From Escherichia coli (GTDB lineage: Bacteria > Pseudomonadota > Gammaproteobacteria > Enterobacterales > Enterobacteriaceae), in the NCBI RefSeq assembly GCF_017348835.2, contig NZ_CP071375.1: a stretch of DNA of 64,000 nucleotides; one strand, written 5' to 3'. The stretch's first letter is position 1. Every line of letters begins with the position of its first letter. Below the pieces are notes generated by a model that was given only the letters and a program-made list of their open reading frames with translations, was not told the origin of the DNA and ran no database searches. Below, piece by piece: positions 3,412 to 63,974 of the stretch. The position numbers and the translations under genes were made by a program.

Positions 3412-4117
3412 GCGGTTTGCCAGCTTGAGTCTTCAACGCTGGGAAGATGCGGCAAACGGCAAATCGGCATACCAGCCAGCCTATATCCGTCATGCACAGG
3501 CCAATTATGAAAGAGGAGAGGCTTAAGTTCTGGAACCCTGAACGAATAACGAGCACCGGAAAATCACTTCGTATCACTCAGATGCTATTTAACATAATAT
3601 ACATTATGCGCACCAATATAAACCAAGGGAGAATCTAGTCGTTGGCGGTCATGATTGTCCTGCTCATTAACAACGACCAAACCCCATATCTTACTCTTAC
3701 TTAATACCGTATTCCCGGCTTAACCGACCGTGCAACCTCAACACATTGGTTTCAACTGCCGTCACCACGTTCTCTGGAAAATCTGTCGGTAATGAAGTCT
3801 TCACGTTATCCAGTGCTGCCGGAATCATTCTGGCAAAGTCACTCAGGATTTCATGCATCTGCACTTCCGGGAATCTCAGCACCTTTGCTGTCGCCAAAAA
3901 ATGTCGCGGATAAATTTTATCGATTGCCGTTTTTTTGCCTTTGGATGCGTTAAGCCCCATTGCCAGTTTGAGATCGCTGATGTGTATTCCCGCGCCACCC
4001 AATACCGGAAATGCTGAAATGATGTCGTAAAATGGCGTGAGTCGATAACTGCCGCCAGCCTGAATAAATACGGAGAAGTTTTTTGCATGGCCATCCGTTG
4101 CGCCAATCAGTTCGCTG

Positions 4118-4547
4118 CATACCGGTCCGACCCCGTACTGCTCACGCAGCTTATCCAGCAGTGGCATTATTTTTTCCAGAGGCGGTCGAACTCCGCCTTC
4201 GCAAAATAAGCGGAAGCCTGGCGAAGGATATCGTTACTGCGGCGCAGTTCACGATTTTCACGTTCCAGCTCTTTCAGACGCTGACGTTCAGCGGTGGTGA
4301 GTCCACCATCACCACTCCCGGTATCCCGCTCATGCTGGCGAACCCAGACACGCAGAGTCTCCGGCGTACAGCCAATCTTTGGGGCAATGGAACAAATTGC
4401 CGCCCACTGTGAGTCATATTCATCCTGACTTTCCAGAACCATACGAATCGCCCGCTGACGGACTTCGGGGGAAAAACGAGTATTTTTAGTCATCCTGTTT
4501 ACCTCTTTCTCAGGGAGTTTAGTCTCCAGGATTTCCGGGGCGGTTCA
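4118..4547 (-). mobile_element. Truncated IS3-family element (IS629/IS1203-like): terminal repeat, complete orfA, first ~20 codons of orfB
   Basis: Bases 4118..4547 match the full copy at 56514..57823 (same end sequence, ending ggggcggttca); identity stops at 4118 inside orfB. Confidence 0.8.
4167..4493 (-). CDS. IS629-like transposase OrfA
   Basis: 108-aa ORF ([19 protein letters not shown]...), identical to the orfA at 57443..57769. Confidence 0.85.
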
Positions 4548-4841
4548 CAACGCTGTCTCGCCCTATTTCTGACAATAAATCAAACGGTTGTCTGGATTTG
4601 GCATGATAACGTTTAACGATCCGGTCACGTACAATCGGGCTATCGGGTAACAAGTTATCGAAGAAGTTAAATACGGCATCAGAGGTGATATTCCCCCTCT
4701 GCAATGGCAGCGAAAGTGACAACGGTCTGGCATAACGGCTGGCTAACCACTCCGGTGCATACTTAAAGGTGTGCGCGCCGTTGGCTAACTTCGTTAACTC
4801 GCCTACCCGCTGGTTGTTCATCCAAGTGACTAGTTTGGGCA

Positions 4842-5108
4842 TTACCACTCCAGATCTTGCTGTTCTGTTGATTCTGGCGAGGCATTTTTCGTGTCGCATA
4901 GCGTCATTGAGAGTTCAAGCGACTGTAAAATCTTAAAAAATGTCGTGAGCGAGGTATTGTCAGGGTTGTTTTCGAAATTGGAAATCGTCGCCTGCTTAAT
5001 GCCGATTTTTTTCGCCAGCTCGCTCTGCGTCCAGCCATTTTGCTGGCGAACCAGTTTCATTGCATTCGCTAATTGCGTTGGGCTATAGATCTTCTGAAAG
5101 CTCATCAT
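4842..5108 (-). CDS. hipB: HipB antitoxin / transcriptional repressor
   Basis: ORF matches HipB (MMSFQKIYSPTQLANAMKLVRQQNGWTQSELAKKIG...); stop overlaps the hipA start by 1 nt as in the known operon. Confidence 0.9.
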   Translation of the reverse strand: MMSFQKIYSPTQLANAMKLVRQQNGWTQSELAKKIGIKQATISNFENNPDNTSLTTFFKILQSLELSMTLCDTKNASPESTEQQDLEW

Positions 5109-5129
5109 GTCATACGTCCACAGCAAATT

Positions 5130-5243
5130 TATCCGCTTAAGGGGATATTATCAGTTTTATCCTTTAGTGAGGATAAAGTCAATCTGGAAACACATCTTAT
5201 CCGCTCTACGGGATAAACGCTGCGATATCCGCGATCGCGGATA
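5130..5243. promoter_or_regulatory. hipBA operator region: four TATCC-N8-GGATA HipB operators
   Basis: TATCC-N8-GGATA palindromes seen at 5130-5147, 5158-5175, 5198-5215 and 5226-5243, directly upstream of hipB. Confidence 0.8.
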
Positions 5244-5318
5244 AAAGGGAGGCTTTAAAAGCCGTTTGAAGTCGGCAATATTAAGCCGCATGCCATCTCG
5301 ACATGCGGCTTATACGGT

Positions 5319-8300
5319 TTACCAGCTATATTTCACTCCCAGCATGCCCTGAGTATCGCTATAGCCTTTATCACCTAGTTGCACACCGACATTCCCCCAC
5401 AGGCTAAGGTTGTTATTTACTTTCGCCTCAACCCCGGTACGTACTTCACCGAGATTACGCGCACCATCACGGCTTACGGTTTGACCATTCATCTTCACGG
5501 CGTAGACTTCGCTATTGTTGATCCAGTTCGCTTCAATGTAAGGCTGGAACTCACGCTGTTTACCATCGTCACGCTGGTGATGGCTATTCAGGTAGGTTTT
5601 CACCCCAAGTCGCGTTTGCACGTTTCCGTCGCCTTCCGTTTCAATGCGCGTTCCGTCTTTCCGGGTATGGTCAGAATCTTTCACACCCATCCAGGTGATT
5701 TGTACCTGTGGCTGGACGTACCAGGTATTCAGCGTCCCTTCGCTGCCACTAAATGTTCCCGCTTCAAAGGTATACCCACCCTCAACAGAGGCCGTCACAC
5801 CGCGAGAATCATAGTCGTCAGCAGAACGGTTATCGGAACTGACACTGTTATCAAACCAGTTATACAGCACCCAACTGTCAACATAAGCGCCGGTCTTATT
5901 CGCATCGTTCTGATACCAGGTCGCGTACAGCCCAGCGCTGTAACCGCTGATGCGCCCATCCGATTTATAACCCACACGATTACTCTGAGTATTACTGTGC
6001 TGATTGGCGTAGCCTGCCATCACGCCAAGATGCCAGCGATCCTGCGCGTTGCTACTCCACTGCGCCAAATCGCCGCCTAGCTGCAATACATAGCGGTTAG
6101 CCTGAGCATTTAGCTGGCCGTCACCGGTCCTGAAACGTTCGTGTCCCCCGACATGACGCATCCACATACTGCTTGCCGAACCCTGAGAAAGCCGTGAATC
6201 TGTATACTGCGGCTCACCCAGACGGTCGTGTAAGCGATGGCTAAACAGCGAGTTGGCTGCGGCAATGTTGCTGATATAGCTTCCGGCCTCCGGGCGATAA
6301 ACTGATGGGCCTTCCGGATCCACAACAGGGGGATTATTGATGGGATCGGGTGTATCCGCTGGCGTTACGCCGTCCCATTTACTGGTCAGATACCAGTTTT
6401 TCTCGTCATTCCCCTTCCCTTTAGCCAGCGTGTAGACGTAAGCCCCAGCTTCGACAGTTCCGGTGGTCAGCGCGAAGTTACCTGCAGAATTACCGCCAAC
6501 CTCAATGAGTTCAATACCGTTGACCGTTTGCGCACCGACGCCGCCAATGTTATCAACCCGAACGCGAGTGTTCCCTTGGGTATCGCCTTTCACGTTCATC
6601 TTATCGGTGGGTGAATTATCGCCGCCCAGCGTCGCGTTGAACGTTATCAGGCCATTGTTTCCGGTATAGTTGCCGTTAACGGTCAGTACATTCCCCGGTT
6701 TTCCTCCTTCACTGTTCATTTGAACCGTGCCGCCATTCTTCAGGTTGCCGCCGATTGTGGTTTTAGCGACACGCAGTGTCCCCCCAGACATAACGTTCAC
6801 ATCACCTGCAGTGGTGACATTTCCCGACATCACACCGCTGTTATGGATATTAATGTGTTGACTTACCGTATTAATGGCAGAGTCGGAACCGAAAGCAATT
6901 TCCCCCCCCCCACGATATCCGTCGTACCCTGATACGCCGAGGAATCGTTGTTAAGAGTCAGGATCCCGGTACCCAGTTTTGTCAAATCACCGCTACCGCT
7001 GATACTGTGCGTCATCGCCCAGCTACGCTCAGTGGAGATGGTGAGCAGGCCATTATTGATAACGGAAGCATCACCCAGGTTTTTCTGCTCGTTGACGCTG
7101 AGCGCGCTGCCTGTATCAATGTTGAATTGCCCCACAAAGCGGCTATTATCGCCATCCAGCTCTACATCTGTCCTGGCGGTTGCGCTCACGATACCCTTCC
7201 CGCTTATGCTATTACGCAGTTCGCCAGTCACGTTTTTTAGCGTTAACAGACCGTCATTGGCAATATTTCCTCTGCCTAACCCCTGCGTATTATCGAGGCT
7301 GACTTCCGCATTTGGGCTAACGCTGGTTAACGCATTGTAGCGTGCATTAAGCCCCTCAATAGCCAGCGTTCCCCCTGTAACATTCAGGTTTCCGCCACCT
7401 GTCAGTTCACCCTGACTGATCCCACCTTTGGACACCGTGGGAACCGTCCTGAACGCCCACCAATGAATATTCTTTGTTATTAATCAGTCCATTATTGGAA
7501 ATATTGACTTTGCCATTACCGAAATATCCATTATAGAGTCTGCGTACCGTGATGACAGAGTCTTGATCCTGCACATTCAGGGTTCCGACACCGGTGGCAT
7601 TGCCACCGATAATCGTATTTTCAGCCGTAATCAGTCCACCCTCGCGAATAGTCGCCTCCCCAGTTCCTTGATTACCAATTTGAAATTCAATTGAGGAATC
7701 GTTATTTTTCATTAGCCACTCGCCACCCTTTTCAACGACAACCTGGCCATTACTGCCCGCCTGATAGCCTAAAATGGCGACGATTGAACTCGTGACGTAA
7801 CCCTTATCCGTAATATTTAATGAGCCTGTACCGTAACTCCCTATTTCGAATAATTCGGTCGTCAAAACCGAGTCCTCTCCCTCAACATTAACCGTCCCGA
7901 CGCCTGCAGCTTGAGTACCTAATCTTAAATAGCCTCCATCGACGTGACCCTTCTGTTTAATATTCAGCGTCCCCGTTCCGGATTGACCCACATTTAAAGG
8001 CCTTGCATTATTTCCGCTATCATACAATCGCCAGGTGCCACCCAAAACATTAACGGTACCCTCCGAATCCTCATTACCGCCAATGACGCTGGTAGTAATA
8101 GTGGTTAAGGAGGCATTACCGCCAGCCAAAATATTAAGCACTCCAGTGCCATACCAGCCAACCAGGTAGGCATCATAAGCAACATCAGTATCAATATTGG
8201 TAATCTGACCATTATCAACTTCCAGACTCGCACCAGACGCTGAACCGCTTAGTGCCAGCAAAACACCCAGCGTCAATCTACTGAATTTCGTTGTCAGTCC

Positions 8301-8414
8301 AGAGGATTTACGCAAATTAACCGTCGATGTTTTACCTGCCCTGCGAGTTAATTCCGAGCAGGCCTGAAATACCTGTAGAGTGCAATTCCATATCACGCGA
8401 TAGATTCTATTCAT
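5319..8414 (-). pseudogene. yneO: AIDA/Ag43-type autotransporter adhesin, frameshifted into three ORFs (yneO-like)
   Basis: ORF 7407..8414 has an extended autotransporter signal peptide (MNRIYRVIWN...), ORF 6863..7435 a Gly/Thr-rich passenger, ORF 5319..6833 a beta-barrel ending in a W terminal residue; all three are in different frames. Confidence 0.8.
6902..6911. repeat. Homopolymeric tract, 10 x C on + strand (G10 on coding strand) at the frame break inside the autotransporter
   Basis: tcccccccccca read directly; both flanking reading frames are open across the tract. Confidence 0.9.
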
Positions 8415-8944
8415 ATAAACGCTCCATATACAAACAATACAGCCACGAAAGAGATGAGTCGTCAGACATTAAAAATGAAACTTATTAAATTGTCAGAGGT
8501 CTGTATTGAGTGTTAGTTGGAGGTGCGAAGGTGTCAATTTGGCTAATTTGCTAATGCTTTCGAATTGATAGATTAAAAATTGCATAGTTCTTATTTTATT
8601 TAAAAATGAACTATGAGTTATTGTTGCTTAATAAGAAAACTGTTTCTTTCAATAGGAAAATTATCATCATCATATTTAACAAAGAATAGCACTAATTGCT
8701 AAAAATCGAAGTTTATTAAACCCCTTTTGCATCCATTAATGTCTTTAGGAATATTCGCTATAAAATAAGGGTTATGCTTAATGCTTTAAGAAAAATAGCA
8801 ATTTTCCCTTGAATATAGTACTGGTGATGGAACGATGAATCTGCAAGCTGGCATTTAACAAGCCAGCTCTAAAAGAAGGGAAATAAGAAAAACTATACTC
8901 AAAAACTAACAGCCACGGTCATCATGATGTGGCTGTCAATGAAA

Positions 8945-10537
8945 CTATAACCCAGGCGCTTTCCATAACGACGTCGTCAGTCCATGATCAACCAGCCCCA
9001 ACTGATCCTGATAAACTGCCTGCCACTTATCGCGTGAATCCTGATAAAGTTCATGCTTTTCCGGGTCTGGTGTGTGCGTCCGTTCCCAGCGAACCAGGCG
9101 TTCTCCGGTTTCTGCCATTGATGAAAAAATTCCGGCACCGACGCCAGCTGCAATGGCACATCCTAATGCAGTGGCTTCTTTGACCACCGGAATATTGACG
9201 GGTAATCCCGAGACATCAGCGAGAATTTGACTCCATAATTTCCCTTTTGAACCTCCGCCAGCAAAAACCAGCGAGGTGGGATGAATATTCGAGAAATCAG
9301 CAATTTGCTGCAAGTTACACGCTGATACAATCGCCGCATTTTCTTCCAGCGCACGGAACAATGTCGCTTTGTTACATTTATCCGGGTCAATGGACAAGTT
9401 AATAAAGGAAGGTGCGGCGTGATACCAGGTTTTAAAGCGCATTCTGTCGGAGAATATCGGCATTACGCCCCACGACCCAGGCGGCACCCGACTGGCCATC
9501 TCTTCCAGCAGCGTATAGGTGTCGATGCCTAAACGTTCGGCAATCAGTTTTTCTTCGGCACAGAAAGCATCGCGGAACCAGCGCATGGTGAATCCGGTAA
9601 AAAAGCTTATAGATTCAGCTTGTACCATGCCAGGAATAACATGAGGATTAACGCGCACGTTCATTTCTGGGTCTGTCACCGGCGCGGCTAAATTTACAAC
9701 TTGCTGCCAGAATGTGCCGCCAAGAACCGCGGTTTGTGCCGGACGCACAACGCCTAACCCCAGGCAACCAAGCTGCACGTCGCCTCCTCCAACGACCACC
9801 GGAGTGCCCACCTTCAGACCGCAGAGTTCCGCCGCTTGTGAACTTACCACGCCCAGCAATGTGCCGGTTTCTTTGACAGGAGAAAGAATATCGGCACGCA
9901 GGCCAGCCATATCCAGCAATGCAGGTTTCCAGTCACGGATGGTTAGATCAAGAAGTCCCGTGGTGCCAGCGTTAGAGGGATCCACCGCAAGTTCGCCGCT
10001 GAGCATATAGGCCAGCCAGTCGCTGATCATGGTGATGGTTGATGCCTGACGGTAAATATCGGAACGATGGTGCGCCAGCCAAAGTAATCTGGGGATGGCA
10101 CTTAAAGCCAGTGTTTGTCCGGTCGCGCGATAAACTTCGTTTTCAAAGGTATTGTTGTGCAGTTCTTTAAGTTCGCTAACTTCACGCGCCGCTCTGGCAT
10201 CCACATTGGCGCAGGCCCAGATCGGTGTTCCTTCATTGTTATATAAAACAATGCCTTCACGCATCGAACATGCCGAAACGGCAGCGATATACTCCGGGGC
10301 TATGCCGGCGTTGTGCAACGCCTGGCGCATACACTCACACGCCAGTTGCCAGTTTTTGTTGAGATCAAATTCCATAGAACCAGGAACGTCCGGTACTGCC
10401 AGATGCCGCCACTCCGCCTGTCCCACTGCTATTTGATTGCCTTCCAGGTCGAATATCACAGCCCGAATACTTCCGGTGCCTGCATCCAGCGCCATCAGGT
10501 AGTACTTTGATTCTGAAGGGGTAAAGAGTCGAACCAT
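8945..10537 (-). CDS. lsrK: Autoinducer-2 kinase
   Basis: 530-aa FGGY carbohydrate kinase ORF; divergent from lsrACDBFG with lsrR between. Confidence 0.9.
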
Positions 10538-10615
10538 TAGATTATCCTCGGCTTATGCGTTCTGTCTGTTCCTCTATACGTTCTCCATCATTCCCGGTAA
10601 TAAGGTCATGCAAAT

Positions 10616-11569
10616 TTAACTACGTAAAATCGCCGCTGCTGTGTCCTGATCGGTAACCAGTGCGTTGATATAACCGCCTTTCATTGCAGCGGCAATTGCT
10701 TCGGCTTTATTTTCTCCCCCTGCCACGCCAACCCGGACGGGTATGGTCTTCAGCGCGCTTAAAGGTAAGCCAATCAGTTCGTTATGTATTTTGATATCCG
10801 TGACAACGTCACCTTTTGCATCAAAAAAGTAGCCTAAAATGTCGCCAACCGCCCCTTTTCGGCCAATCATTAACTGTTCGCCCTGGCTGATATAACCGGA
10901 GCGAATGATTGTCGCGTCGTCTTGTTGACTCACGGCCCCAATGCCGACAATCGCCACATCCGCTGCTTGCGCGGCTAGCAGAACATCTTTGACGCAATTT
11001 TCATTTTTTAGCGTACGGGCAATGTCAGCGGAGGATGCCCGCAACGGAGCCGGAATAATATTCACACTGCACGCCGCGTTAAGCTGCCCGATACCCGTCA
11101 TATAAGAACCGACGCCACCGGAGAGCGTGACCAGGCGAATTTGCTGTGACGAAATAAAACCACTTAAGCGTTGCAGCGTATTCATGGTTGCCTCGCCAAA
11201 ACCAATCGCCAGCATCTGTTGTGGTTGAAGTAAACTCATCAACATATGCGCCGCGCCTATCCCCAGTCGCCCGCCGACATCAGCATCCGCAAGCCCAGGG
11301 ATCACCCGGACATGTTGCAGCGAAAACTGACGACGTAAGTGAGTTTCATATTCCAGACAGCCTTCAAAGCGAGAATTAATCTGTACGCGAATAATGCCGG
11401 ACTGATGCCCTTTCTCCAGTAATCGCGACACTTTCAAACGTGTCAGGCCGAGACGATCGCTGATCTCGCTCTGGGTCAGCCCGTCGTGGTAGTAAAACCA
11501 CGCGATCCGCGCGACCTGTTCTTCTTCACACATTCCCTGTTCTGAAATTGCCGAATCGTTGATTGTCAT
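10616..11569 (-). CDS. lsrR: lsr operon repressor (SorC family)
   Basis: 317-aa ORF with N-terminal HTH and sugar-binding domain; position in lsr locus. Confidence 0.9.
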
Positions 11570-11817
11570 AATTCATTCTTCACTTTGAACATATTTAAAT
11601 CTTTAATGCAATTGTTCAGTTCTTGCGCATTTATATCTGTGATGGCAACCACAGTTTGACTCTACGAGCATGAACAAACGCAACCGTGAAAATCAAAATA
11701 GCATAAATTGTGATCTATTCGTCGGAAATATGTGCAATGCCCACCTAAGGTTATGAACAAATTAAAAGCAGAAATACATTTGTTCAAAACTCACCTGCAA
11801 AACTGAACGGGGGAAAT
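11570..11817. promoter_or_regulatory. Divergent lsrR / lsrA promoter region
   Basis: 248-bp AT-rich intergenic region between divergent lsrR and lsrA; individual binding sites not resolved by eye. Confidence 0.4.
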
Positions 11818-43304: not shown

Positions 43305-44588
43305 TTACAGACTTCTGGAAGGTTGCGCAGCTCTTACAACACGCGGTTGATCTTCCGCGGCGTCTTCCAGCGCACTTAAATCACGGTCTTTCACTTCTGG
43401 CATTTTCAGCGCAGAGATTAAACCAATCACTGAATATGCCATGATCATAATGGCGATCGGATACCAGGATTCCGTCATGGTGCAGAAAATACCCGCCAGG
43501 ATAGGACCAAAACCGGAAGCGATAAGACCACCAATTTCTTTAGAAATAGCCATCCGGGTAAAGCGGTTTTTACAGCCGAACATTTCTGCCATGGTAATGT
43601 TTTCCAGAGCAAATAATCCCAGCACCGCACAGTTATGAATCACAATCAGTGCAACCATAATGGTGCTCGGGGCATAGCTTTTATCTACGATGATAGAAAG
43701 CATTGGCCATGCCAGCACAATCGCAGAGGTATTCATAATAATATACGGGATCCGGCGACCAATTTTATCGGATAACCAACCAAGGAACGGAATGGTCATA
43801 AAGCCGAGAATCGAACTGATCATCAATGCATCTGTTGGAATTGCTTTGTTAAACAATAACGTCTGTACTAAATAGCCTGCAAGGAAAGTCTGAATTAAAC
43901 CGGAGTTACCCGCCTGACCAAAACGCAGCCCTGTTGCCAGCCAGAAGGATTTGCTCTGGAACATGCTACCAGCAGGTGCAGGTTTTGCTGTCGGTTGGTT
44001 GCTGTCGTTAACCTTCTCAAAGACCGGGCTTTCTTTCAGATTCATACGCAACCAGATAGCAAAGACCATCACGACAACGCTCGCCAGGAACGGTATACGC
44101 CATCCCCACGCCAGCAGTTCCTCTTTACTGAGAATGAAGAACATAAAGGCCCAGATTGCCGTTGCGCTTAAGGTTCCGCAGTTAGTTCCCATAGCCACAA
44201 ATGAGGAGATAATTCCGCGCTTACCTTTTGGCGCATATTCCGCCAGCATCGTACCGGCACCGGAAATTTCCGCACCCGCACCCAACCCCTGAATAATACG
44301 CAGCGTCACCAGCAAGATGGGGGCAAAAACACCAATCTGTGCATAGGTCGGTAACACTCCAATTAAGGTGGTACAGATCCCCATCATGGTGATGGTAATA
44401 AAGAGCACTTTTTTACGCCCTATTCTGTCGCCCATTTTGCCGAAAATAAATGCTCCGACAATACGCGCCACATAACCTGCACCGCAGGTTCCCATTGCCA
44501 AAATTAACGCCATTGCCGTTGATGATTCAGGAAAAAATATTTCATGAAACACTAACGCAGCGCCGAGCGAATATAACTGGAAATCCAT
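43305..44588 (-). CDS. ydfJ: MFS metabolite:H+ symporter, probably N-terminally truncated at the prophage junction
   Basis: 427-aa ORF begins inside the first transmembrane region; the conserved GDRIGRK motif is close to the N-terminus. Confidence 0.7.
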   Translation of the reverse strand: MDFQLYSLGAALVFHEIFFPESSTAMALILAMGTCGAGYVARIVGAFIFGKMGDRIGRKKVLFITITMMGICTTLIGVLPTYAQIGVFAPILLVTLRIIQGLGAGAEISGAGTMLAEYAPKGKRGIISSFVAMGTNCGTLSATAIWAFMFFILSKEELLAWGWRIPFLASVVVMVFAIWLRMNLKESPVFEKVNDSNQPTAKPAPAGSMFQSKSFWLATGLRFGQAGNSGLIQTFLAGYLVQTLLFNKAIPTDALMISSILGFMTIPFLGWLSDKIGRRIPYIIMNTSAIVLAWPMLSIIVDKSYAPSTIMVALIVIHNCAVLGLFALENITMAEMFGCKNRFTRMAISKEIGGLIASGFGPILAGIFCTMTESWYPIAIMIMAYSVIGLISALKMPEVKDRDLSALEDAAEDQPRVVRAAQPSRSL

Positions 44589-45192
44589 AATTCACAGGTG
44601 TTTTTTCCCATCCTGTGGTTTCCTTGGCGTTTTCTAGGTTTTTTCAGATAGTTGCATTTTTTAAAAAGCATCCTAAGTTCGATCTCAGTGTCTATCTGGG
44701 GCCTATTTCTGTCCCATATATGCCCCAAAAAAAACTCCCCAACAGATAAGTAGTTTTTTCATGGATTTATGCGTAAAATCAAGAACGGCTGGAAATCATT
44801 CAATACTCACACTATCGAAAAATTTACCAGCCAACCGCAGCACGTTCTTGCATAAGGCGTGTCTGCGGTTTTTCAACTATTCAGATACATCACTCCCATC
44901 ACATTCATTCCTCCGCATCAAAGGCATATAGGCTATATCACCTTGATATTTTTATTTTTCAGATAAAAACTGTTATCTATGTATACTTTTAAACCCAATC
45001 CGTGTAGAGTCTCTGCATAAGATAGTTTGCAGTTGCCGCTTCAGCTTGCGCCATAAATCGCCTGATTTTTGCTGCCACCTGTTAGCATTCCTGTATACCT
45101 GAAACGACAATGTTTATCTACGAACTTTAAGAACACCCAAGATAAAAATTGTCAACTATATCATATATAACACATTACTAATTCGAGGCTAT

Positions 45193-46612: not shown

Positions 46613-47188
46613 CTACGGCAGTGCTGGCCATTCAATATCCTGTGCAGTTGACGTATCAACACGGTTCAGCAATACCCGATACTTTTTCCATGCTTCCAGC
46701 AACGAGATTTCTTCCTCCGTTGCAATTTCCAGATCTGCAGCATCCTGAAGCGGCGCAATATGCTCACTGGCTACCTGCATCAGGCTGTTTTTTGTTTCTT
46801 CCGCCTCCCGGATCCGGAACAGTTTTTCTGCTTCCGTATCCTTCACCCAGGCTGTGCCGTTCCACTTCTGATATTCCCCTCCCGGCGATAACCAGGTAAC
46901 ATTTTCCGGTAACGGACCGAGTTCAGAAATAAATAACGCGTCGCCGGAAGCCACGTCATAAACCGTTTTACCCCGATGATCTTCAACGAGATGCCACGAT
47001 GCCTCATCACTGTTGAAAACAGCCACGAAGCCTGCCGGAATATCTGGCGGTGCAATATCGATACTGTTTGCTGGCAGACCTGTATGAGGCGGAATATATG
47101 CGTCACCTTCACCAATAAATTCATTAGTTCCGGCCAGCAGATTATAAATTTTTATGGTCCGTGGTTGTTCACTCATTCTGAATGCCAT
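46613..47188 (-). CDS. tfaQ: Tail fibre assembly protein
   Basis: 191-aa Tfa-like ORF directly downstream of the tail-fibre C-terminus. Confidence 0.8.
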
Positions 47189-48741
47189 TATGCAAGCCTC
47201 ACAATATAGTTAAATGCGATGTTTTTGACGGTGTTTTCCGCGTTACCAGCAGCGTTAACGGTGATGGTATGTCCATGTGAACCAATCGCAACGGAGTGCG
47301 TATGAGCACCAATACCGACAGTATGTGCGTGTGCACCTGCGCTTGCAGCAGTACCCGATACAGAGTGCGTATGAGCGCCTGCAGAAGAAGTGTTAACACT
47401 GTATTTAGAGTAATCAGGTGATCCACTTCCCGGAGCACCACTGGAACCACCTGAAACAAATGTCATCGAATGGGTATGTGCACCGGCTGAAGCAGCCGTA
47501 CCGCTAACACTATGGGTATGCGCACCAGTGTTATTCGTGGATTTAGTGCCGTAATCAAACGACGATGTGGTTTTCGTCCCCAAATCCGTACTGGATACGC
47601 TGGCGCTGTGGGTGTGTGATTTAATGCCGTCCTGTTCCTGAGACAATACGGCTCGATCACTGGCGGGCTTGCCCTTAATCGTCCAGCCACGCATATCCCC
47701 TTTCGTTTTCATCCAGTCTTTGACAATCTGCACCCAGGTGGTGAACGGGCTGTACGCTGTCCAGATGTGAAAGGTCACACTGTCAGGTGGCTCAATCTCT
47801 TCACCGGATGACGAAAACCAGAGAATGCCATCACGGGTCCAGATCCCGGTCTTTTCGCAGATATAACGGGCATCAGTAAAGTCCAGCTCCTGCTGGCGGA
47901 TGACGCAGGCATTATGCTCGCAGAGATAAAACACGCTGGAGGGGTCATCCGGCGTCCATTTGAGGCCAAACGGCGTCTCTTTGTCGCCAAATTTAAGATA
48001 CTGCTCCTCCCCGCAGTGCGGGCAGGCAACATGAAAACGCATAAAATGCGGGGATTCACTGGCTGCACGCTCAATCTGGCAGGTGCCTCTCACTTTGGGC
48101 GTGGAGCCACGGATGGACTTTGGCCAGACCGAGCCTTCAATACGTTTGTCGCCAAGGAACGTCGGAGAGCCTTCCTGTTCAATATCCTCATCAAAGGCAG
48201 CAAGTTCATCATAACCCGCCACATCCACCGACTTTTCACGGTAGTTTTTTGCCGCTTTACCGCCCAGGCACCAGAAGCCACGACCATTGGAAAAACGCTT
48301 CATAGTGAGCGTGTTATCCCGGTGCTTTTTGCCATACCACGGAGCCAGCGCCAGCAGCGACGGAATATCGCGGATGGTCGGCTCAACGTGGGTTTTCATA
48401 AAGTTCTCGGCATCACCATCCGTCGGCAACCAGATAAGTGTGTTGCGCTGCTTATGCTCTATAAAGTAGACATAAACACCCAGCAGCATTTTGGAATAAC
48501 CGACACGGGCAGACTTCACCACATTCACCTCACGGATGTAGTCGCTGCCCATCGCATTCATGATGGCCCGCTGAAAGGGCAGTGTTTCCCAGCGCCCTTC
48601 CTGGTATGCGGATTCTTTCGGGAGATAGTAATTAGCATCCGCCCATTCAACGGCGGTCTGTGGCTCCGGCCTGAACAGTGAGCGAAGCCCGGCGCGGACA
48701 AAATGCCGCAGCCTGTTAACCTGACTGTTCGATATATTCAC
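47188..48741 (-). pseudogene. stfQ: In-frame fusion: lambda gpA-like large terminase N-terminal ~350 aa (47694..48741) joined to a side tail fibre C-terminus (47188..47693)
   Basis: ORF starts [23 protein letters not shown]... (lambda A) to ...[10 protein letters not shown], then switches to His-rich tail-fibre sequence ([20 protein letters not shown]...). Confidence 0.8.
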
Positions 48742-49261
48742 TCAGCAACCCCGGTATCAGTTCATCCAGCGCGGCTGCTTTGTTCATGGCTTTGATGATA
48801 TCCCGTTTCAGGAAATCAACATGTCGGTTTTCCAGTTCCGGAAAACGCCGCTGCACCGACAGGGGGATCCCGTCGAGAATACTGGCAATTTCACCTGCGA
48901 TCCGCGACAGCACGAAAGTACAGAATGCGGTTTCCACCACTTCAGCGGAGTCTCTGGCATTTTTCAGTTCCTGTGCGTCGGCCTGCGCACGCGTAAGTCG
49001 ATGGCGTTCGTACTCAATAGTCCCTGGCTGGAGATCTGTCTCGCTGGCCTGCCGCAGTTCTTCAACTTCCCGGCGCAGCTTTTCGTTCTCAATTTCAGCA
49101 TCCCTTTCGGCATACCATCTTATAACGGCGGCAGAGTCATAAAGCACCTCATTACCCTTGCCACCGCCTCGCAGAACGGGCATTCCCTGTTCCTGCCAGT
49201 TCTGAATGGTACGGATACTCGCACCGAAAATGTCAGCCAGCTGCTTTTTGTTGACTTCCAT
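48716..49261 (-). CDS. nohA: Terminase small subunit (lambda Nu1 homologue)
   Basis: 181-aa [45 protein letters not shown]...; overlaps the A start as in lambda. Confidence 0.9.
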
Positions 49262-49450
49262 TGTTCATTCCACGGACAAAAACAGAGAAAGGAAACGACA
49301 GAGGCCAAAAAGCCCGTTTTCAGCACCTGTCGTTTCCTTTCTTTTCAGAGGGTATTTTAAATAAAAACATTAAGTTATGACGAAGAAGAACGGAAACGCC
49401 TTAAACCGGAAAATTTTCATAAATAGCGAAAACCCGCGAGGTCGCCGCCC
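49262..49450 (-). other. Lambda-type cos site: cosN 12-nt cohesive end at 49439..49450, cosB region between cosN and nohA
   Basis: Minus strand reads CCGACAGGTTACG-GGGCGGCGACCT-CGCGGGTTTTCGCTATTTATGAAAATTTTCCGGTTTAAGG, the lambda end junction, then a lambda-like region up to the Nu1 start. Confidence 0.85.
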
Positions 49451-49649
49451 CGTAACCTGTCGGATCACCGGAAAGGACCCGTAAAGTGATAATGATTATC
49501 ATCTACATATCACAACGTGCGTGGAGGCCATCAAACCACGTCAAATAATCAATTATGACGCAGGTATCGTATTAATTGATCTGCATCAACTTAACGTAAA
49601 AACAACTTCAGACAATACAAATCAGCGACACTGAATACAGGGCAACCTC

Positions 49650-52020: not shown

Positions 52021-53050
<1,030 letters not shown>

Positions 53051-56555: not shown

Positions 56556-57443
56556 TCAGGCTGCCAGATCATTATTTCCGATGGAAGCATAATAAGCTTT
56601 TTCTGCTTCTGCCGGAGGAATATGGCCCAGCCTTTCCAGCAATCGTCGATTGTTATACCAGTCCACCCACGTTAGTGTGGCCAGTTCCACTTCTGTCCGG
56701 TTTTTCCAGCTCTTACGGTGTATTACCTCCGCTTTGTAAAGACCATTGATGCTCTCAGCCATCGCGTTGTCATACGAGTCGCCAGTACTCCCTGTTGATG
56801 CCAGTAATCCGGCTTCCTTAAGCCGCTGCGTGTAGGCCAGCGATACATACTGAGAACCTTTATCACTGTGATGGATTGTGCCGGACGGCCGACGGGCCCA
56901 CAACGCCTGCTCCAGTGCATCCAGCACGAATGTTGTTTCCATGGATGATGAGACCTGCCATCCCACGATGTATCCGGCGAACACATCAATGATGAACGCC
57001 ACATAAACGAAGCCCTGCCATGTGCTTACCCAGGTAAAATCAGCCACCCACAACTGGTCTGGACGTTCTGCCACGAACTGACGGTTTACGCGGTCGCATG
57101 CGGCAACGGCTTTCCGGCTGACGGTAGTGCGGACCTTTTTACCCCGGAGAACACCGGCAAGTCCCATAACTGCCATGAGACGTGCCACAGTGCATCTGGC
57201 CACTCTGATACCTTCCCGTAACAACTGACGCCAGACTTTACGCACACCGTATACCTGGTGATTTTCATCGTATACGCGCTGTATCTCTTTCTTCAGCCAG
57301 TCATCGTGCTGCGCACGGGCACTGCGTTTATCCGGATGATGTCGCTGTTGCTGACAATGGTAATACGTTGACGGGGCAATATGCAGTTCGCTGCATACCG
57401 GTCCGACCCCGTACTGCTCACGCAGCTTATCCAGCAGTGGCAT
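56556..57443 (-). CDS. IS629-like transposase OrfB (DDE); expected to be made as an OrfAB fusion by -1 frameshift
   Basis: 295-aa ORF; A-rich slippery stretch (GGAAAAAATAATG) at the orfA/orfB overlap. Confidence 0.9.
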   Translation of the reverse strand: MPLLDKLREQYGVGPVCSELHIAPSTYYHCQQQRHHPDKRSARAQHDDWLKKEIQRVYDENHQVYGVRKVWRQLLREGIRVARCTVARLMAVMGLAGVLRGKKVRTTVSRKAVAACDRVNRQFVAERPDQLWVADFTWVSTWQGFVYVAFIIDVFAGYIVGWQVSSSMETTFVLDALEQALWARRPSGTIHHSDKGSQYVSLAYTQRLKEAGLLASTGSTGDSYDNAMAESINGLYKAEVIHRKSWKNRTEVELATLTWVDWYNNRRLLERLGHIPPAEAEKAYYASIGNNDLAA

Positions 57444-57769
57444 TATTTTTTCCAGAGGCGGTCGAACTCCGCCTTCGCAAAATAAGCGGAAGCCTGGCGA
57501 AGGATATCGTTACTGCGGCGCAGTTCACGATTTTCACGTTCCAGCTCTTTCAGACGCTGACGTTCAGCGGTGGTGAGTCCACCATCACCACTCCCGGTAT
57601 CCCGCTCATGCTGGCGAACCCAGACACGCAGAGTCTCCGGCGTACAGCCAATCTTTGGGGCAATGGAACAAATTGCCGCCCACTGTGAGTCATATTCATC
57701 CTGACTTTCCAGAACCATACGAATCGCCCGCTGACGGACTTCGGGGGAAAAACGAGTATTTTTAGTCAT
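57443..57769 (-). CDS. IS629-like transposase OrfA
   Basis: 108-aa ORF identical to 4167..4493. Confidence 0.9.
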
Positions 57770-57874
57770 CCTGTTTACCTCTTTCTCAGGGAGTTTAGTC
57801 TCCAGGATTTCCGGGGCGGTTCATTAAAGATTTTTTTGTGCATGCCGATAGTGCTTTTTTAAAAGGAGAAATCT

Positions 57875-58207
57875 ATGTCTGTCACAATTCAGGGAAATAC
57901 CTCAACCGTTATTTCAAACAACTCCGCCCCGGAAGGAACATCAGAAATAGCCAAAATCACAAGACAAATTCAGGTGCTGACTGAAAAGCTTGGGAAAATC
58001 TCATCGGAAGAGGGGATGACGACACAGCAGAAAAAAGAAATGGCTGCATTGGTACAGAAGCAAATTGAAAGCCTCAGGGCTCAACTGGAGCAGTTGTTAA
58101 GGCAGCAGGCAGAGAAAAAGAATGAAGACGCGACAGTTCAGCCTGATAAAAAAGAAGAGAAAAAAGACGATACAAATACCGCTGGCACCATTGATATTTA
58201 CGTCTAA
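57875..58207 (+). CDS. flxA: Prophage protein FlxA
   Basis: 110-aa ORF MSVTIQGNTSTVISNNSAPEGTSEIAKITRQIQVLTEKLG... with ribosome-binding site. Confidence 0.7.
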   Translation: MSVTIQGNTSTVISNNSAPEGTSEIAKITRQIQVLTEKLGKISSEEGMTTQQKKEMAALVQKQIESLRAQLEQLLRQQAEKKNEDATVQPDKKEEKKDDTNTAGTIDIYV

Positions 58208-58221
58208 GTGACAGCCGTATT

Positions 58222-58245
58222 GTGGCCCTCATCGGGCCACTTTTC
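58222..58245 (+). terminator. Intrinsic terminator after flxA
   Basis: GTGGCCC-tcatc-GGGCCAC-ttttc. Confidence 0.75.
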
Positions 58246-58643
58246 GCCATCAGCCTTTTCTTTAAAGACATATTATCTTTGTATCATTTCTGATAGTTAA
58301 CATTACAAGATATAAGTAATGGACGCACTCCCAATTAGTCTATTTAAATCGCCACGAGTTTAACTGACAACCCATGATCAATTATGAATTGCAACTATTT
58401 CTGTAGTCACTTTTGTGGGGACAGTCCACAAAACTGCCAACTTCCGCTTCTTGCTCTTAGCGGACATTAGCATAGGCTATTTACCATAACGCCTCATTAC
58501 GCGCACCGCCCAGACTGACTCAGCGCGTTTCTGGCATATCCCCGGTAAAACAAGTAACAAACCACCCGAAAATGAACACCAGAAACGCGACTTAAGAATC
58601 TACCCTATGAATGGATATGCACTCAACCGAATCGATCTTGGTT

Positions 58644-59985
58644 TCAATCTTTTTTATCGGGATCAGGCTTCTTTTTAGGTAACTTCGGGGGCTTAACTTG
58701 CTGATGACTTTGCGTTCGGCGCGTAAGCCAGGGATGGTCAGCTTTAGGTTTAACATAGTATTTTGAGCGTAAATCAATACGGGCATTATCCACTCGTTCA
58801 TGGACACTCTTTTCATCATCCAGTGGTATAGGCTCCGGGCCATCAACATACTTTTCCCAGCCCAGCGCTTTCCCGTCATACAGAACGTTAATTTCACCGT
58901 CAAAGTTCTCGCATACAGTAACAACCGAATGCCTAAGTCGATATCCCCGGCCCTCACTGCGTACCTGAAACGCACTGCTTTTGTACTGGAAAGTGAGATT
59001 TTTAGACAGAACGCGCTTCGCCTGTAGGCTGAAGATATAACCCAGTTCCTCTTCAGAATGGTGCACATCAAGATGAGCATTATCAGTAGTACGAGGCGAC
59101 GTAGCGAACCGGTTGTTATAGGCTTCAATAAAGGTCGGCAACCATGCATTTGCTGTTTCAATATCACTGATATTCTGAAGCCGCATTTCTTTGACCAGCC
59201 TGTCCTGTAGTGTCTGATTGGCGCGCTCTACCCGCCCTTTTGCCTGCGGGCTGTTGGCATGGATTGGCTCGATGCCCAGTGTCTTTATCGCACGAGTGAA
59301 CTGGGTCAGCTCACCTTCCCGCTCTGGGTTATTTACCCTGAATATACTGTGTCTATCAGAGTAGAGAGCGAGCGGTACGCCATGATCATTAAGGTAACCC
59401 CGGAGGGTTTCCATGTAAGCCCGGGTTGTTTCAGCAGGCACAAAACGCAACGCCATCAACGCACTGGTGGCATCATCAATGAAAACGATCAGTGTACATC
59501 TGGGGCCTCGATTTTCAAACCAGTCATGAGGTGAGCCATCAATCTGGATCAGTTCACCGTAAGATGGTCGTCGCATGCGGCGTTGATATATACGGGCAAT
59601 TTTACGACGGCGTTCACGCCATACCCCCCTCTTCTATCATCCACTTTCTGAGAGTTTCAACGGATAAAGATAAACCGTGTATCTCGCGCAATTTTTCGCA
59701 CGCAAACGTAGGTCCAAAATCAGCGTAACGGCCTTTGAGGAGTGAAATTACTGTTGCTCTGAATTCAGTAGAAAAGGAATTATTAGGACGCTTTCCACGT
59801 CGGTGGGAAACCAGACCAGAAGGCCCTTCATTTCTATACCGTTGCACCAGACGTTTAACCTGCCGAATAGAAATGCCAATGCGTGCCGCAGCTTGTTCCT
59901 GAGTAATATGTCGATTAATTGACTCCTGAATAATCTGAAGTCGGTGGAGTTCCTTATGACTCATCGTAACAGTTTCTTTGGTCAT
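58644..59985 (-). pseudogene. HTH + DDE (integrase-core) transposase split into two frames (IS481/ISNCY-like)
   Basis: N-terminal HTH ORF 59614..59985 and DDE ORF 58644..59576 are in different frames; a C7 run sits at the junction (59625-59631). Confidence 0.6.
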
Positions 59986-62008: not shown

Positions 62009-62535
62009 TGCGCCACGTCCTGAAAATTACCCTGATAGAAAGCCAGTATGCGCTGCATAACTTCGCTCTTCCGGCACTCGCGACAGATTATGTTTAGGCG
62101 ACTGTCGTAGCGACGTATTTCTCCGTCAGGTGATGACCAGATAAGGTCCGGATCAACCACAGCAGGTTTCTTCACCTTTGCCCTCGAGAGTTTTTTGCGG
62201 GCGTTTTGCCAGTCCTTACGCGCCTGTTCAGAGGGGAATAACCCGTATCTGATATCCCAAAAAATGAAACCGCACCGGAAGCTGAACCATCTGTAGAGCG
62301 TGAGGGGCCGTTCTATTTCCTCTTCGCAGATAAGGACGGAGAAAAATACGGTCGCGCAAACAAACTTTCTGGTCTGGATAAGGCACTGGCTGCTGGCGCC
62401 ACTGAAATCACAAAAGAAGAATATTTTGCCCGAAAAAATGGCACATACACGGGCTTACCGCAAAATGTAGATACCGCTGAAGATTCAGAACAACCAGAGC
62501 CGATAAAAGTTACCGCTGACGAAGTAAACAAAATT

Positions 62536-63615
62536 ATGCAGGCAGCCAATATCAGCCAGCCTGACGCCGATAAGTTGCTTGCTGCATCACGTGGTGAATT
62601 TGTTGAAGGGATTAGTGACCCGAATGATCCGAAATGGGTTAAGGGGATCCAGACCCGCGATTCTGTGAACCAGAACCAGCATGAATCGGAACGGAACTAC
62701 CAAAAAGCGGAACAAAACAGCCCAAATGCGTTACAAAACGAGCCAGAAACGAAACAGCCTGAATCAGTGGCGCAACAGGAAGTGGAAAAAGTCTGCACCG
62801 CCTGCGGTCAGACCGGCGGCGGCAACTGCCCTGATTGTGGCGCGGTGATGGGCGACGCAACATACCAAGAAACATTCGATGAAGAGTATCAGGTTGAAGT
62901 TCAGGAAGATGATCCGGAGGAAATGGAAGGCGCTGAACATCCACACAAGGAGAACGCTGGCGGCAATCAGCATCACGATAGCGATAATGAAACTGGCGAG
63001 ACGGCAGATCACTCAATTAAGGTGAACGGTCATCACGAAATCACATCCACCAGCAGGACGTGTGACCATCTAATGATCGACCTTGAAACCATGGGAAAAA
63101 ATCCTGATGCCCCGATCATCTCAATAGGTGCAATATTTTTCGATCCGCAAACCGGAGATATGGGACCGGAATTTAGTAAGACTATCGATCTGGAAACTGC
63201 TGGCGGAGTCATTGATCGGGACACCATTAAATGGTGGCTTAAGCAATCACGCGAAGCGCAATCGGCCATTATGACCGATGAAATCCCGTTAGATGATGCA
63301 CTGTTACAATTGCGGGAATTTATCGACGAAAACTCCGGTGAATTTTTTGTTCAGGTTTGGGGAAATGGAGCCAACTTCGACAACACGATTTTGCGCCGTT
63401 CATACGAACGGCAGGGGATCCCCTGCCCGTGGCGTTACTACAACGATCGCGATGTACGCACAATCGTTGAGCTGGGGAAAGCCATAGACTTCGATGCCAG
63501 AACGGCTATTCCATTCGAAGGTGAGCGCCATAATGCACTTGATGACGCCCGTTACCAGGCAAAATACGTTTCAGTTATCTGGCAAAAACTGATCCCGAGT
63601 CAGGCTGATTCTTAA
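62536..63615 (+). CDS. Prophage protein with zinc ribbon and C-terminal DEDD (DnaQ-like) 3'-5' exonuclease domain
   Basis: 359-aa [19 protein letters not shown] zinc ribbon; exonuclease motifs [25 protein letters not shown]. The frame is open upstream to 62242 without a start codon. Confidence 0.7.
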
Positions 63616-63687
63616 TGTTCAACTGTCGCCGGTTGTGACTGGTATTCTGCAACCGGCGCTCGTCTGATGTAAGAGATAAAGAAATCG

Positions 63688-63939
63688 ATGAGCGAAGTAA
63701 TCATGATTGTCTCTCCCGGCAAATGGGTATCCGAAGAGCAGTTAATTGCGCTGAAAGGAATAAAAAAAGGTACGTTAAAAAAGGCCCGGGAAAAATCGTT
63801 TATGGAAGGAAGGGAATATAAGCATGTCGCTCATGACGGTATGCCATGGGATAACAGTCCATGCTTTTACAACCTGGAAGAAATTGATCGCTGGATTGAG
63901 CGCCAGGCATCAGCAAGACCAAGACGTCATCTTACTTGA
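63688..63939 (+). CDS. Excisionase-like small DNA-binding protein
   Basis: 83-aa basic ORF immediately upstream of the integrase start. Confidence 0.5.
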   Translation: MSEVIMIVSPGKWVSEEQLIALKGIKKGTLKKAREKSFMEGREYKHVAHDGMPWDNSPCFYNLEEIDRWIERQASARPRRHLT

Positions 63940-63974
63940 CTAAAAGCCACACTAACTAATGAGAGAAGTTGAAA

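Follow-up and report, generated by a model that had tools for sequence, protein, structure and literature searches.

A rare allele of prophage Qin in Escherichia coli: a lambda-type cos and an intact Nu1 homologue beside a terminase–tail fibre chimera

We analysed a 64,000-nt stretch of Escherichia coli DNA (the window) in which a lambda-type cos site and a Nu1 gene adjoin an open reading frame that begins as the large terminase gene A and ends as a tail-fibre gene. The locus is the known defective prophage Qin in a rare allele; it represents ordinary prophage decay, and is no working mobile element. Very probably, this remnant of the Qin late operon is a passive relic with a dead chimera, from which no Qin transducing particles would result; it was most probably left by a two-step deletion at short microhomologies. 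The architecture is already known, Qin and DLP12 of strain K-12 having been annotated with related layouts.

The packaging remnant of Qin

Gene names used here are those of the PGAP annotation of E. coli strain PE164, mapped to window coordinates; window and PE164 are 100% identical over 3.2 kb in the packaging region. Gene order and flanks identify the locus as the cryptic lambdoid prophage Qin, integrated between ydfJ (43305-44588, beside the left boundary) and rspB and collinear with K-12 Qin. According to the PE164 annotation and to this collinearity, the gene set and order are those of Qin, ynfT-ydfK-pinQ-tfaQ-stf'-nohA-cos-ynfO...gnsB-ynfN-cspI-rzpQ-rrrQ-ess-cspB-cspF-Q. A Qin-type attachment core of 11 nt flanks the element: its left copy coincides with the annotated K-12 Qin boundary, and a second copy lies about 15 nt past the window end, next to rspB and 38 bp downstream of the stop codon of int. 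This core, one of two 11-mers found, is the longest word that the ydfJ-side boundary shares with the 400 bp following int in PE164. The Qin element is here 19.4 kb long, about 40% of the lambda genome. No replication or immunity genes are annotated in it, and the stretch from Q to xis consists only of IS elements and pseudogenes. The features outside the cos region are:

44580..44590, + strand: left attachment core of Qin, GAAATCCATAA
45925..46515, + strand: pinQ (PGAP name), serine recombinase ORF of 196 aa, convergent with tfaQ
46613..47188, − strand: tfaQ, tail-fibre assembly protein of 191 aa, intact by ORF and annotation
47188-48741, − strand: chimeric ORF A'::Stf', 517 aa, with a GTG start as in lambda A; lambda A codons 1-349 followed by the last 168 codons of an stf gene
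47188..47693, − strand: stf-derived 3' part of the chimera, 168 codons, aligning to lambda stf (orf-314) from nt 21368
47694..47697, − strand: deletion junction, a 4-nt microhomology GATA common to lambda A (GGGGATA/CGG) and stf (CCTGATA/TGCG)
47694..48741, − strand: gene A-derived 5' part, codons 1-349 plus 1 nt, by lambda alignment
62401..63967, + strand: excisionase (62401-62652) and tyrosine integrase (62687-63967) of Qin, both annotated as intact by PGAP in PE164

PinQ shows 38% identity to PinE of prophage e14, and its matches to the NCBIfam serine-recombinase models fall below their cut-offs. Over 715 bp, tfaQ shows 94% DNA identity to lambda tfa, the proteins being collinear with few substitutions, and its ATG overlaps the TAA stop of the chimera (TAATG).

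The cos region and the adjoining small subunit gene are made up of the following elements:

48716..49261, − strand: nohA (PGAP name), Nu1 homologue (terminase small subunit), 181 aa, intact
49286..49398, − strand: cosB region (R3/I1/R2/R1), by lambda alignment and exact R-element matches
49286-49297, − strand: cosB R1, exact CGTTTCCKTTCT
49331-49342, + strand: cosB R2 (inverted), exact CGTTTCCKTTCT
49387-49398, − strand: cosB R3, exact CGTTTCCKTTCT
49439..49450, − strand: cosN, exact 12-nt cohesive-end sequence GGGCGGCGACCT, present only once in the window
49451..49638, − strand: equivalent of the lambda right end upstream of cosN, including the cosQ region, about lambda 48316 to 48502, with no mismatch

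The complete lambda-type arrangement is thus found, with the cosN 12-mer, cosB (R3/I1/R2/R1) and cosQ upstream. The three R elements keep the order and orientation that they have in lambda, with I1 between R3 and R2, a pattern matched in none of 100 shuffles. Identity to lambda is unbroken from a point some 187 bp ahead of cosN as far as lambda nt 134, hence across cosQ, cosN, R3, I1 and R2, and the sole differences within cos, G135A and a 1-nt deletion (delA138), both lie in the R2-R1 spacer. The Nu1 homologue has its full 181 aa with three substitutions with respect to lambda Nu1 (K48R, A75T and L132I), and, as in lambda, nohA and the start of A share 26 nt.

Downstream of this start, the A-derived part differs from lambda A codons 1-349 by three amino-acid changes, another 15 codons being changed synonymously, and identity to lambda across nt 1-1758 is 98.4%. 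At 47694, which corresponds to lambda nt 1758, homology ends both with lambda and with the best matches listed among the 192 matching phage records. Alignment of 47188..48741 to lambda A and to stf maps the junction as lambda nt 1758 joined to nt 21368, and the reading frame runs unbroken across 47693/47694 to the fibre C-terminus. The stf 3' end is 100% identical to those of two other Qin alleles (L017 and L004). An earlier note on this DNA had described a perfect lambda cos junction, an adjoining intact Nu1 homologue and, beside them, a translatable chimera in which about 350 terminase codons continue into a tail-fibre C-terminus near 47693/47694; all of this is borne out, the last point to the nucleotide, and cos proves to be intact by sequence outside the 12-nt core as well.

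With respect to domain content, Pfam GpA_ATPase matches residues 47-285 of the chimera (E 2e-50), and GpA_nuclease matches residues 322-349 only, which are positions 2-33 of a 294-position model. The A-derived part hence keeps the Nu1-binding N-terminus, the complete ATPase domain and 28 residues of the nuclease domain, and lacks the C-terminal prohead-binding end; of the ATPase, endonuclease and prohead-binding end that a functional large subunit combines, lambda residues 350-641 are absent. The Stf-derived part holds His-box (GAHTHS) repeats and the C-terminal tip, and yields only weak Phage_fiber repeats in Pfam. As only the last 168 residues are left, the N-terminal attachment region and the collar that precede the receptor-binding tip are missing, and no Pfam match to the collar (PF07484) was found in the chimera, unlike in the K-12 StfQ clusters. 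PGAP labels the chimera a "phage terminase large subunit family protein", and does not flag the fusion.

Origin of the junction

The deletion is equivalent to lambda 1759-21367, and has taken away the rest of A, then W, B, C, Nu3, D, E, FI, FII, Z, U, V, G, T, H, M, L, K, I, J and lom, and the 5' part of stf. The earlier note had attributed the loss of the rest of A and of all head and tail genes to one deletion. That a large internal deletion occurred is confirmed; tfaQ and the stf tip remain, however, and a single event is unproven and, in view of a sister allele, probably wrong.

The exact window junction is present in two of the 5,426 complete genomes (PE164 and F2_81). Among the 48 genomes that cover a junction probe, these two do so in one piece and the rest with a 200-bp insertion. 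The sister allele (L006), carried by about 46 genomes, shares this A breakpoint but has an additional 201 bp (67 codons) of stf, and its junction lies at an 8-nt microhomology, GGGATACG, as compared to the 4 nt (GATA) at the window junction. In view of this sister allele, we consider that the window allele probably arose in two steps. We propose that microhomology-mediated illegitimate deletion removed about 19.6 kb (lambda coordinates) from a lambda-type left arm. A deletion of about 19.4 kb between the copies of GGGATACG in gene A and stf would have generated the A349::Stf sister allele, from which a second, in-frame deletion of 201 bp between GATA repeats would have produced the window allele. 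The order of the two deletions is our inference.

A less probable course, although one that retains some weight, is a single deletion of about 19.6 kb in a fuller Qin, which would have linked A nt 1758 with stf at GATA in one event unconnected with the sister allele. It would account for the fact that the window stf 3' end, tfaQ and pinQ are identical to those of alleles L004 and L017 and not to those of the sister, and that no intermediate combining the sister junction with a window-type stf 3' end was found among the best-matching complete genomes. Moreover, the non-random endpoints of deletions here (see below) make the reuse of an A site conceivable. Nevertheless, the A breakpoints of both alleles coincide within 2 nt out of about 20 kb, and the 8-nt microhomology of the sister explains the use of that A site better than the 4 nt of the window junction. 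The window A' is also nearest to the sister A', with 8 mismatches in 1048 positions versus 14-29 for other alleles. Flanks are readily exchanged at this locus: as conversion patches differ between the two junction-bearing genomes, exchange took place after the junction had formed.

The earlier note had also pointed out that the fusion is in frame. We find no evident meaning in this: the locus has many other alleles formed by independent deletions, some in frame and some out of frame, the latter being common. A is destroyed at many different positions, and fusions in frame are not over-represented among the alleles. The chimeric ORF is intact in both carriers and the sister ORF in at least two genomes, which is compatible with a recent origin and also with some constraint.

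Comparison of the alleles at this locus brought to light a deletion hot spot in stf, TA/ACCGCG, precise to the nucleotide (GGGTA/ACCGCGCTG; protein ...GRV/TALTDNT). The natural site reads AAAGGTCGGGTAACCGCGCTGACAG, and the stf sequence just downstream ACCGCGCTGACAGAC. At least 17 independent deletions, joined to 17 different partner sites, have their right-hand end at this position to within one nucleotide; the left ends lie in Nu1, A, B, V, H, a protease gene, portal genes, lom and other genes, and nearly all finish in TA. The window (GATA) and sister (GGGATACG) junctions also centre on TA, and share one A endpoint. Late-region deletions in Qin-type prophages could on these grounds be driven by site-directed breakage and rejoining at TA-centred sites and not by random decay, an idea that we regard as improbable. 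Candidate agents would be the adjacent serine recombinase PinQ, acting on TA-core quasi-sites, or a fixed DNA end made by a nuclease, and the A::Stf chimera would then be one product of an active mechanism of prophage dismantling or tail-fibre shuffling.

Several explanations for the hot spot were considered and rejected. A search for Din-type invertase crossover sites, based on AAACCnnGGTTT as in the recovered e14 pix sites, gave nothing above chance in K-12 Qin; no inverted repeat linking stf to the pinQ side was found, and neither the window nor a natural stf locus contains the hot-spot site a second time. An AAG PAM lies 6 nt upstream of the hot spot, and type I-E CRISPR self-targeting was discarded when a repeat-spacer-repeat probe revealed no array with a matching spacer in 5,426 genomes, the best full-length matches (about 88% identical) being unrelated spacers. 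As single-stranded DNA, the site does not fold better than shuffled sequence does (z from -0.5 to -1.1), which speaks against a hairpin or cruciform, and the Qin att core is unrelated to the hot spot, which speaks against a secondary integrase site. The left partners seemed to share a half-site motif (G at -4 and -7), but this signal stems from a first-codon-position bias of the in-frame sample and is not counted here. With regard to selection for in-frame fusions, metagenome and viral contigs, sampled at the DNA level and hence unbiased for reading frame, yielded four new hot-spot alleles within genes, three of them out of frame; in complete genomes, 4/6 are in frame (binomial p about 0.1). 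Nor did helper-embedded satellites offer a link to the hot spot: of the 14 integration sites given for them in PMC10111431, none lies in stf.

Packaging capacity of the remnant

The chimera would be unable to cut cos or to package DNA, because it has the ATPase domain only, deprived of the nuclease and of the portal-binding end, and fused to a collar-less fibre tip. The outcome of the two deletions would hence be a passive relic, with Nu1 intact, cos intact as far as its sequence indicates, and a large subunit predicted to be non-functional. A resident or infecting lambda-type phage could supply terminase in trans, and this would be expected to nick the Qin cos. Such nicking would break the chromosome and stimulate recombination, and any packaging that it set off would at most run in one direction, into the ydfJ side; particles transducing Qin itself would not be formed. 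Recombinants between lambda and DLP12 cluster at cos, and cos cutting in both lambda and DLP12 has been suggested as the cause (PMC3945230).

The earlier note had gone further, proposing that the element could in principle be packaged by a helper phage. Qin would then be a cosmid-like or satellite-like element transferred by a lambdoid helper via cos and Nu1, a reading that we deem highly unlikely. It is true that cos and Nu1 are intact by sequence, that int, xis and both att cores are intact in the strain, so that excision is conceivable, and that three further lambda-type cos regions in the same genome could belong to helpers. Lambda packaging, however, starts at cosN and proceeds through Nu1 and A, so from this cos it would leave Qin towards ydfJ and the chromosome beyond, with about 14.5 of the 19.4 kb lying in the other direction. 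Lambda maturation also needs a second cos one genome length away, and an exact search of the window revealed no second cosN in the 49.4 kb downstream. An excised circle would, at about 40% of lambda, remain below the packaging minimum of about 75-78%, and no replication or immunity genes for making concatemers are annotated. Finally, no capsid-size-redirection or helper-interference genes were detected, the packaging-region proteins giving no relevant match in PADLOC and NCBIfam.

Slightly less credible still is that the remnant has been domesticated, Nu1 and the nuclease-less terminase fragment acting as a dominant-negative decoy that poisons the terminase of incoming lambda-type phages and so interferes with packaging. 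Residues 1-48 of the terminase large subunit are the Nu1-interaction region, and the chimera keeps them together with the whole ATPase domain, its ORF being undamaged in both carriers and Nu1 likewise intact. Against this, the allele is as rare as 2/5,426 genomes, other alleles wreck A at many points and in any frame, and no defence-family match was found for the chimera. Nor is there any promoter signal above chance: in a scan of 45.8-53.2 kb, promoter and terminator counts were at chance level, and a terminator-like hairpin (50534-50513) lies upstream on the coding strand. That the junction is an assembly or sequencing artefact can be set aside, because two complete genomes of separate origin (China and Australia), sequenced independently and 28 SNPs apart in the surrounding 6.2 kb, share it exactly.

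Significance and relation to known systems

Correctly read, the remnant is a case of ordinary lambdoid prophage decay in E. coli, and the finding itself matters little. Its practical value is one of caution, as the PGAP name hides the chimera. Lambda-type cos regions are present in 4,594 of the 5,426 genomes, at a median of two places per genome; such sequence-intact sites, found in most E. coli chromosomes, could be hot spots of breakage and recombination whenever a lambda-type terminase is expressed. The allelic series at the Qin locus is a natural record of prophage erosion, with dozens of independent deletions, many of which create chimeric ORFs, and the precise stf hot spot deserves a mechanistic explanation.

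Cos-type phage satellites (PICIs) and cosmids carry a cos recognised by a helper terminase, and Qin shares with PICIs its own integrase, excisionase and att sites. It differs from them in having no replication module and no genes that manipulate a helper or redirect its packaging or capsid size, in a size (19.4 kb) incompatible with lambda heads, and in a cos that points outward, in situ packaging leaving the element. The gene ymfN of prophage e14 ("chimeric replication protein/phage terminase") is likewise a translatable chimera that an internal deletion created in a defective prophage, one of its parts being a terminase fragment, although prophage, partner genes and terminase family are different.

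Closer is DLP12 of K-12 (cos-nohD-aaaD'-tfaD'), where a lambda-type cos, an intact Nu1 homologue and a 5' A fragment likewise abut a tail-fibre module after one large deletion. Its A fragment is, however, of 103 codons and joined inside tfa instead of stf (lambda 1-1018 joined to 22119), and the remnant is annotated as the pseudogene aaaD, with no long chimeric ORF. The layout of cos, Nu1, A' and tail-fibre module is hence annotated in K-12, as is the Qin locus itself, A' surviving there only in DLP12. K-12 Qin (pinQ-tfaQ-stfQ-nohA-cos-ynfO...) occupies the same ydfJ/rspB site among the same flanking prophage genes, and likewise has cos and nohA on one side and the stf tip, tfaQ and pinQ on the other, the head and tail genes being deleted internally. 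The K-12 deletion, by contrast, fuses codon 3 of A in frame with a point 150 codons further upstream in stf and leaves no A fragment; the nohA C-terminus is altered, the stf tip is of a different sequence type, and intQ is a pseudogene, whereas both int and xis are intact in the window strain.

The A::Stf chimera in the Qin prophage

This region corresponds to the cryptic prophage Qin. Over the 3.2 kb surrounding the chimera it shows 100% identity to E. coli PE164, which was isolated from a pig in China. Its genes are collinear with those of K-12 Qin: between ydfJ and rspB lie ynfT-ydfK-pinQ-tfaQ-chimera-nohA-cos-ynfO-like and, further on, gnsB-ynfN-cspI-rzpQ-rrrQ'-essD-cspB-cspF'-Q-IS3-ISEsa1'-pseudogenes-xis-int. 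The features referred to below are:

47188-48741, minus strand: chimera ORF, 517 aa; its GTG start overlaps the Nu1 stop, as in lambda
48716-49261, minus strand: Nu1 homologue (nohA), 181 aa; 3 residues differ from lambda Nu1
49286-49297 (minus), 49331-49342 (plus), 49387-49398 (minus): cosB R elements, exact matches to CGTTTCCKTTCT (n=3)
49439-49450, minus strand: cosN, GGGCGGCGACCT, single occurrence in the window
62401-63967: xis and int, annotated intact; K-12 intQ is a pseudogene

The att core is an 11-nt sequence, GAAATCCATAA, present as a direct repeat; one copy is found at 44580-44590 and the second 38 bp past int, about 15 nt outside the window end. These repeats delimit a 19.4-kb element which, having kept int, xis and the att core, may still be excisable. 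No repressor or replication genes are found in the annotation of this Qin. Beside the Q antiterminator gene ydfT, at approximately 56564-58698, there are an IS3-family element and a truncated ISEsa1 transposase gene, after which frameshifted pseudogenes run on; this run of pseudogenes past Q indicates that the Qin early region is gone. A frameshift leaves the lysozyme gene rrrQ as two ORFs that overlap (52515-52790 and 52619-53050); PGAP labels it 'frameshifted'.

The earlier note had described a cosN beside an intact Nu1 gene, which is exact to the nucleotide, and an in-frame fusion of A to a tail-fibre gene near 47693/47694, which is borne out by alignment to lambda A and stf. Codons 1-349 of the chimera correspond to lambda gene A, with 3 amino-acid and 15 synonymous codon differences. 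Homology ends at 47694 (lambda nt 1758) in all best-matching phage records listed (192 matched); below this position the frame is kept into the last 168 codons of the side-tail-fibre gene, equivalent to lambda stf from nt 21368, and the stop overlaps the start codon of an intact tfa gene. The junction carries a 4-nt microhomology, GATA (47694-47697).

According to Pfam, the GpA_ATPase domain is complete (residues 47-285), 28 residues of the nuclease domain remain and the fibre part contains no Collar domain. In lambda gpA, Nu1 is bound by residues 1-48 and the prohead by the final ~30 residues; the C-terminal half contains the endonuclease. Given this layout and the truncated nuclease domain, the chimera should be unable to cut cos or to dock on proheads. 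Of a fibre, it retains the tip and nothing else. It matches none of the known defence families, and promoter and terminator scans gave counts no better than chance.

The cos site and the proposed packaging by a helper phage

Three exact CGTTTCCKTTCT matches occur in the window sequence versus none in 100 shuffles. In the alignment, identity to lambda is unbroken over a stretch that begins some 187 bp upstream of cosN, takes in the cosQ region and ends at lambda nt 134; the only cos differences are G135A and the loss of A138, both in the R2-R1 spacer. As the cos sequence is intact, a lambda-type terminase given in trans would be expected to recognise it. Recombinants between lambda and the K-12 prophage DLP12 concentrate at cos, which De Paepe et al. 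ascribe to cos cutting (PMC3945230). Lambda-type cos regions are present in 4,594 of the 5,426 genomes (median 2 places per genome, 4 in PE164), so that a chromosomal cos beside Nu1 is commonplace. Nu1 residues 1-55, an N-terminal helix-turn-helix, match the PADLOC model 'mad1' (E 9e-12), probably through a generic MerR-like HTH resemblance and not a defence function.

Lambda packaging starts at cosN and moves across Nu1 and then A; it can mature only at another cos of the same orientation, roughly a genome length further on. Here packaging would proceed from the chimera through tfaQ, pinQ and ydfJ into the chromosome, away from ~14.5 of the 19.4 kb of Qin, and a second cosN is absent from the 49.4 kb downstream. 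An excised Qin monomer would have about 40% of lambda length and, judging from its gene content, could not replicate. The outward direction, the missing second cosN and the short, non-replicating monomer together make packaging of the element by a helper, as the earlier note had proposed, implausible. The note's observations stand and its interpretation is supported in part.

Origin of the junction and the stf hot spot

The distribution of the junction was determined with a 100-nt probe across it against 5,426 complete genomes. It matched in one piece in only two, PE164 and F2_81, the latter from an Australian pig, and in about 46 others as two pieces some 200 bp apart. In the latter, the sister allele (e.g., loci L006 and L039), A breaks at lambda nt 1760 with an 8-nt microhomology, GGGATACG, and the stf endpoint is located 67 codons upstream of that in the window, giving an in-frame ORF of 601 aa. 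Deleting the 201 bp between its two GATA repeats recreates the window junction. We consider it likely, from these comparisons, that the window allele arose in two steps, via the sister allele: the A breakpoints lie within 2 nt of each other, the microhomology is longer at the sister junction, and the window A fragment is nearest to that of the sister (8 mismatches in 1048 versus 14-29 for other alleles). Against this, the window shares its stf tip, tfaQ and pinQ in identical form with loci L004 and L017, not with the sister allele. Between the two junction carriers, PE164 and F2_81 (compared as the window and locus L038), SNP clusters are limited to tfaQ (46872-47164, 9 SNPs) and nohA-cosB (48968-49378, 12 SNPs), and the 1.3 kb around the junction are identical. 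The clusters resemble patches acquired by gene conversion from other lambdoid prophages, and their confinement to the flanks of an identical junction shows that gene conversion exchanges the flanks once a junction has formed.

One stf position, ...AAAGGTCGGGTA/ACCGCGCTGACAG... (protein ...SKGRV/TALTDNT...), serves within 1 nt as right-hand deletion endpoint for at least 17 different left partners, mostly at the Qin locus and also at other sites. It is missing from the window, lost in the window's own deletion. Its occurrences are:

L014:6220-6245: natural site, GGGTA/ACCGCGCTGACAG
L002 (K-12 stfQ start), L004, L008, L010-L013, L015-L017, L031, L040, L047, L049: junction copies
Left partners, lambda-type genes: A codon 3, A codon 82, Nu1, B (2 sites), V, lom stop codon
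Left partners, rest: tape measure, ClpP protease (3 sites), another portal (2), another TerL, an Ash-family gene, a TAGT gene, one further

Almost every left partner ends in TA. This dinucleotide is natural in 6 of the 7 undeleted partner sites recovered (lambda B has TG), and therefore represents a 2-nt microhomology. Searches on the hot spot found no Din-type site, no second copy of it, no hairpin and no matching I-E CRISPR spacer, and the Qin att core is unrelated in sequence. Invertase-driven exchange at tail-fibre segment boundaries has been proposed in the literature (reference 74 of PMC3945230); PinQ is only 38% identical to PinE. A candidate second endpoint, /YPTAYGN (DNA GGA/TATCC), lies 21 codons downstream in the protein-search matches P0091 and P0101; its two partners there, major capsid protein E and a DUF977 protein, are unrelated. 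Of everything described here, the stf hot spot alone merits follow-up.

Comparison with other Qin alleles and K-12 prophages

Dozens of independent deletion alleles are found at the Qin locus of other strains (L003-L006, L008, L010, L011, L014, L016, L017), with two distinct head-module types at the same site.

Deletion alleles at the Qin site
A(1-3)::Stf: K-12 Qin
Nu1(1-172)::Stf: other strains
Full A-W-B(1-144)::Stf: other strains
A'-D-E-FI-FII-Z-U-V::Stf: other strains
A(411 codons)-E'-FI'-stf': other strains
A(~495 codons), then 1.8 kb of stf out of frame: other strains
DUF1441 TerS / GpA TerL head module ending in portal::Stf, ClpP-protease::Stf or tape-measure::Stf

Many alleles yield chimeric ORFs (portal::Stf, V::Stf, tape-measure::Stf, ClpP::Stf, Nu1::Stf, holin::J), which PGAP labels by the N-terminal partner with no flag. 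In-frame enrichment was not found among complete-genome alleles (4 of 6 in frame, p ~0.1), and of the new alleles from DNA-level samples, most are out of frame. In the protein match P0089, the chromosomal dehydrogenase RspB (ADH_N domain) is fused to the stf tip, which implies that some strains have undergone a rearrangement or deletion across all of Qin.

K-12 Qin carries the same module as the window with a different deletion. Its 'stfQ' (L002:6886-7848) fuses the first three lambda A codons (GTG AAT ATA) in frame to the hot-spot position. This deletion falls at lambda nt 719, 17 nt short of the Nu1 stop (736), and presumably explains why its nohA (L002:7799-8368) has 189 aa versus 181 aa. 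As the window and K-12 alleles each contain sequence missing from the other, neither can be derived from the other. In K-12 DLP12, cos-nohD-A' (lambda 1-1018) runs into tfa, with the fusion point at lambda 22119; what is left of A is annotated as pseudogene aaaD. The e14 gene ymfN is annotated as 'chimeric replication protein/phage terminase'. Given these parallels, the window carries a rare allele of a familiar element, whose architecture and mode of origin are familiar too: an ordinary prophage remnant of a kind already known.
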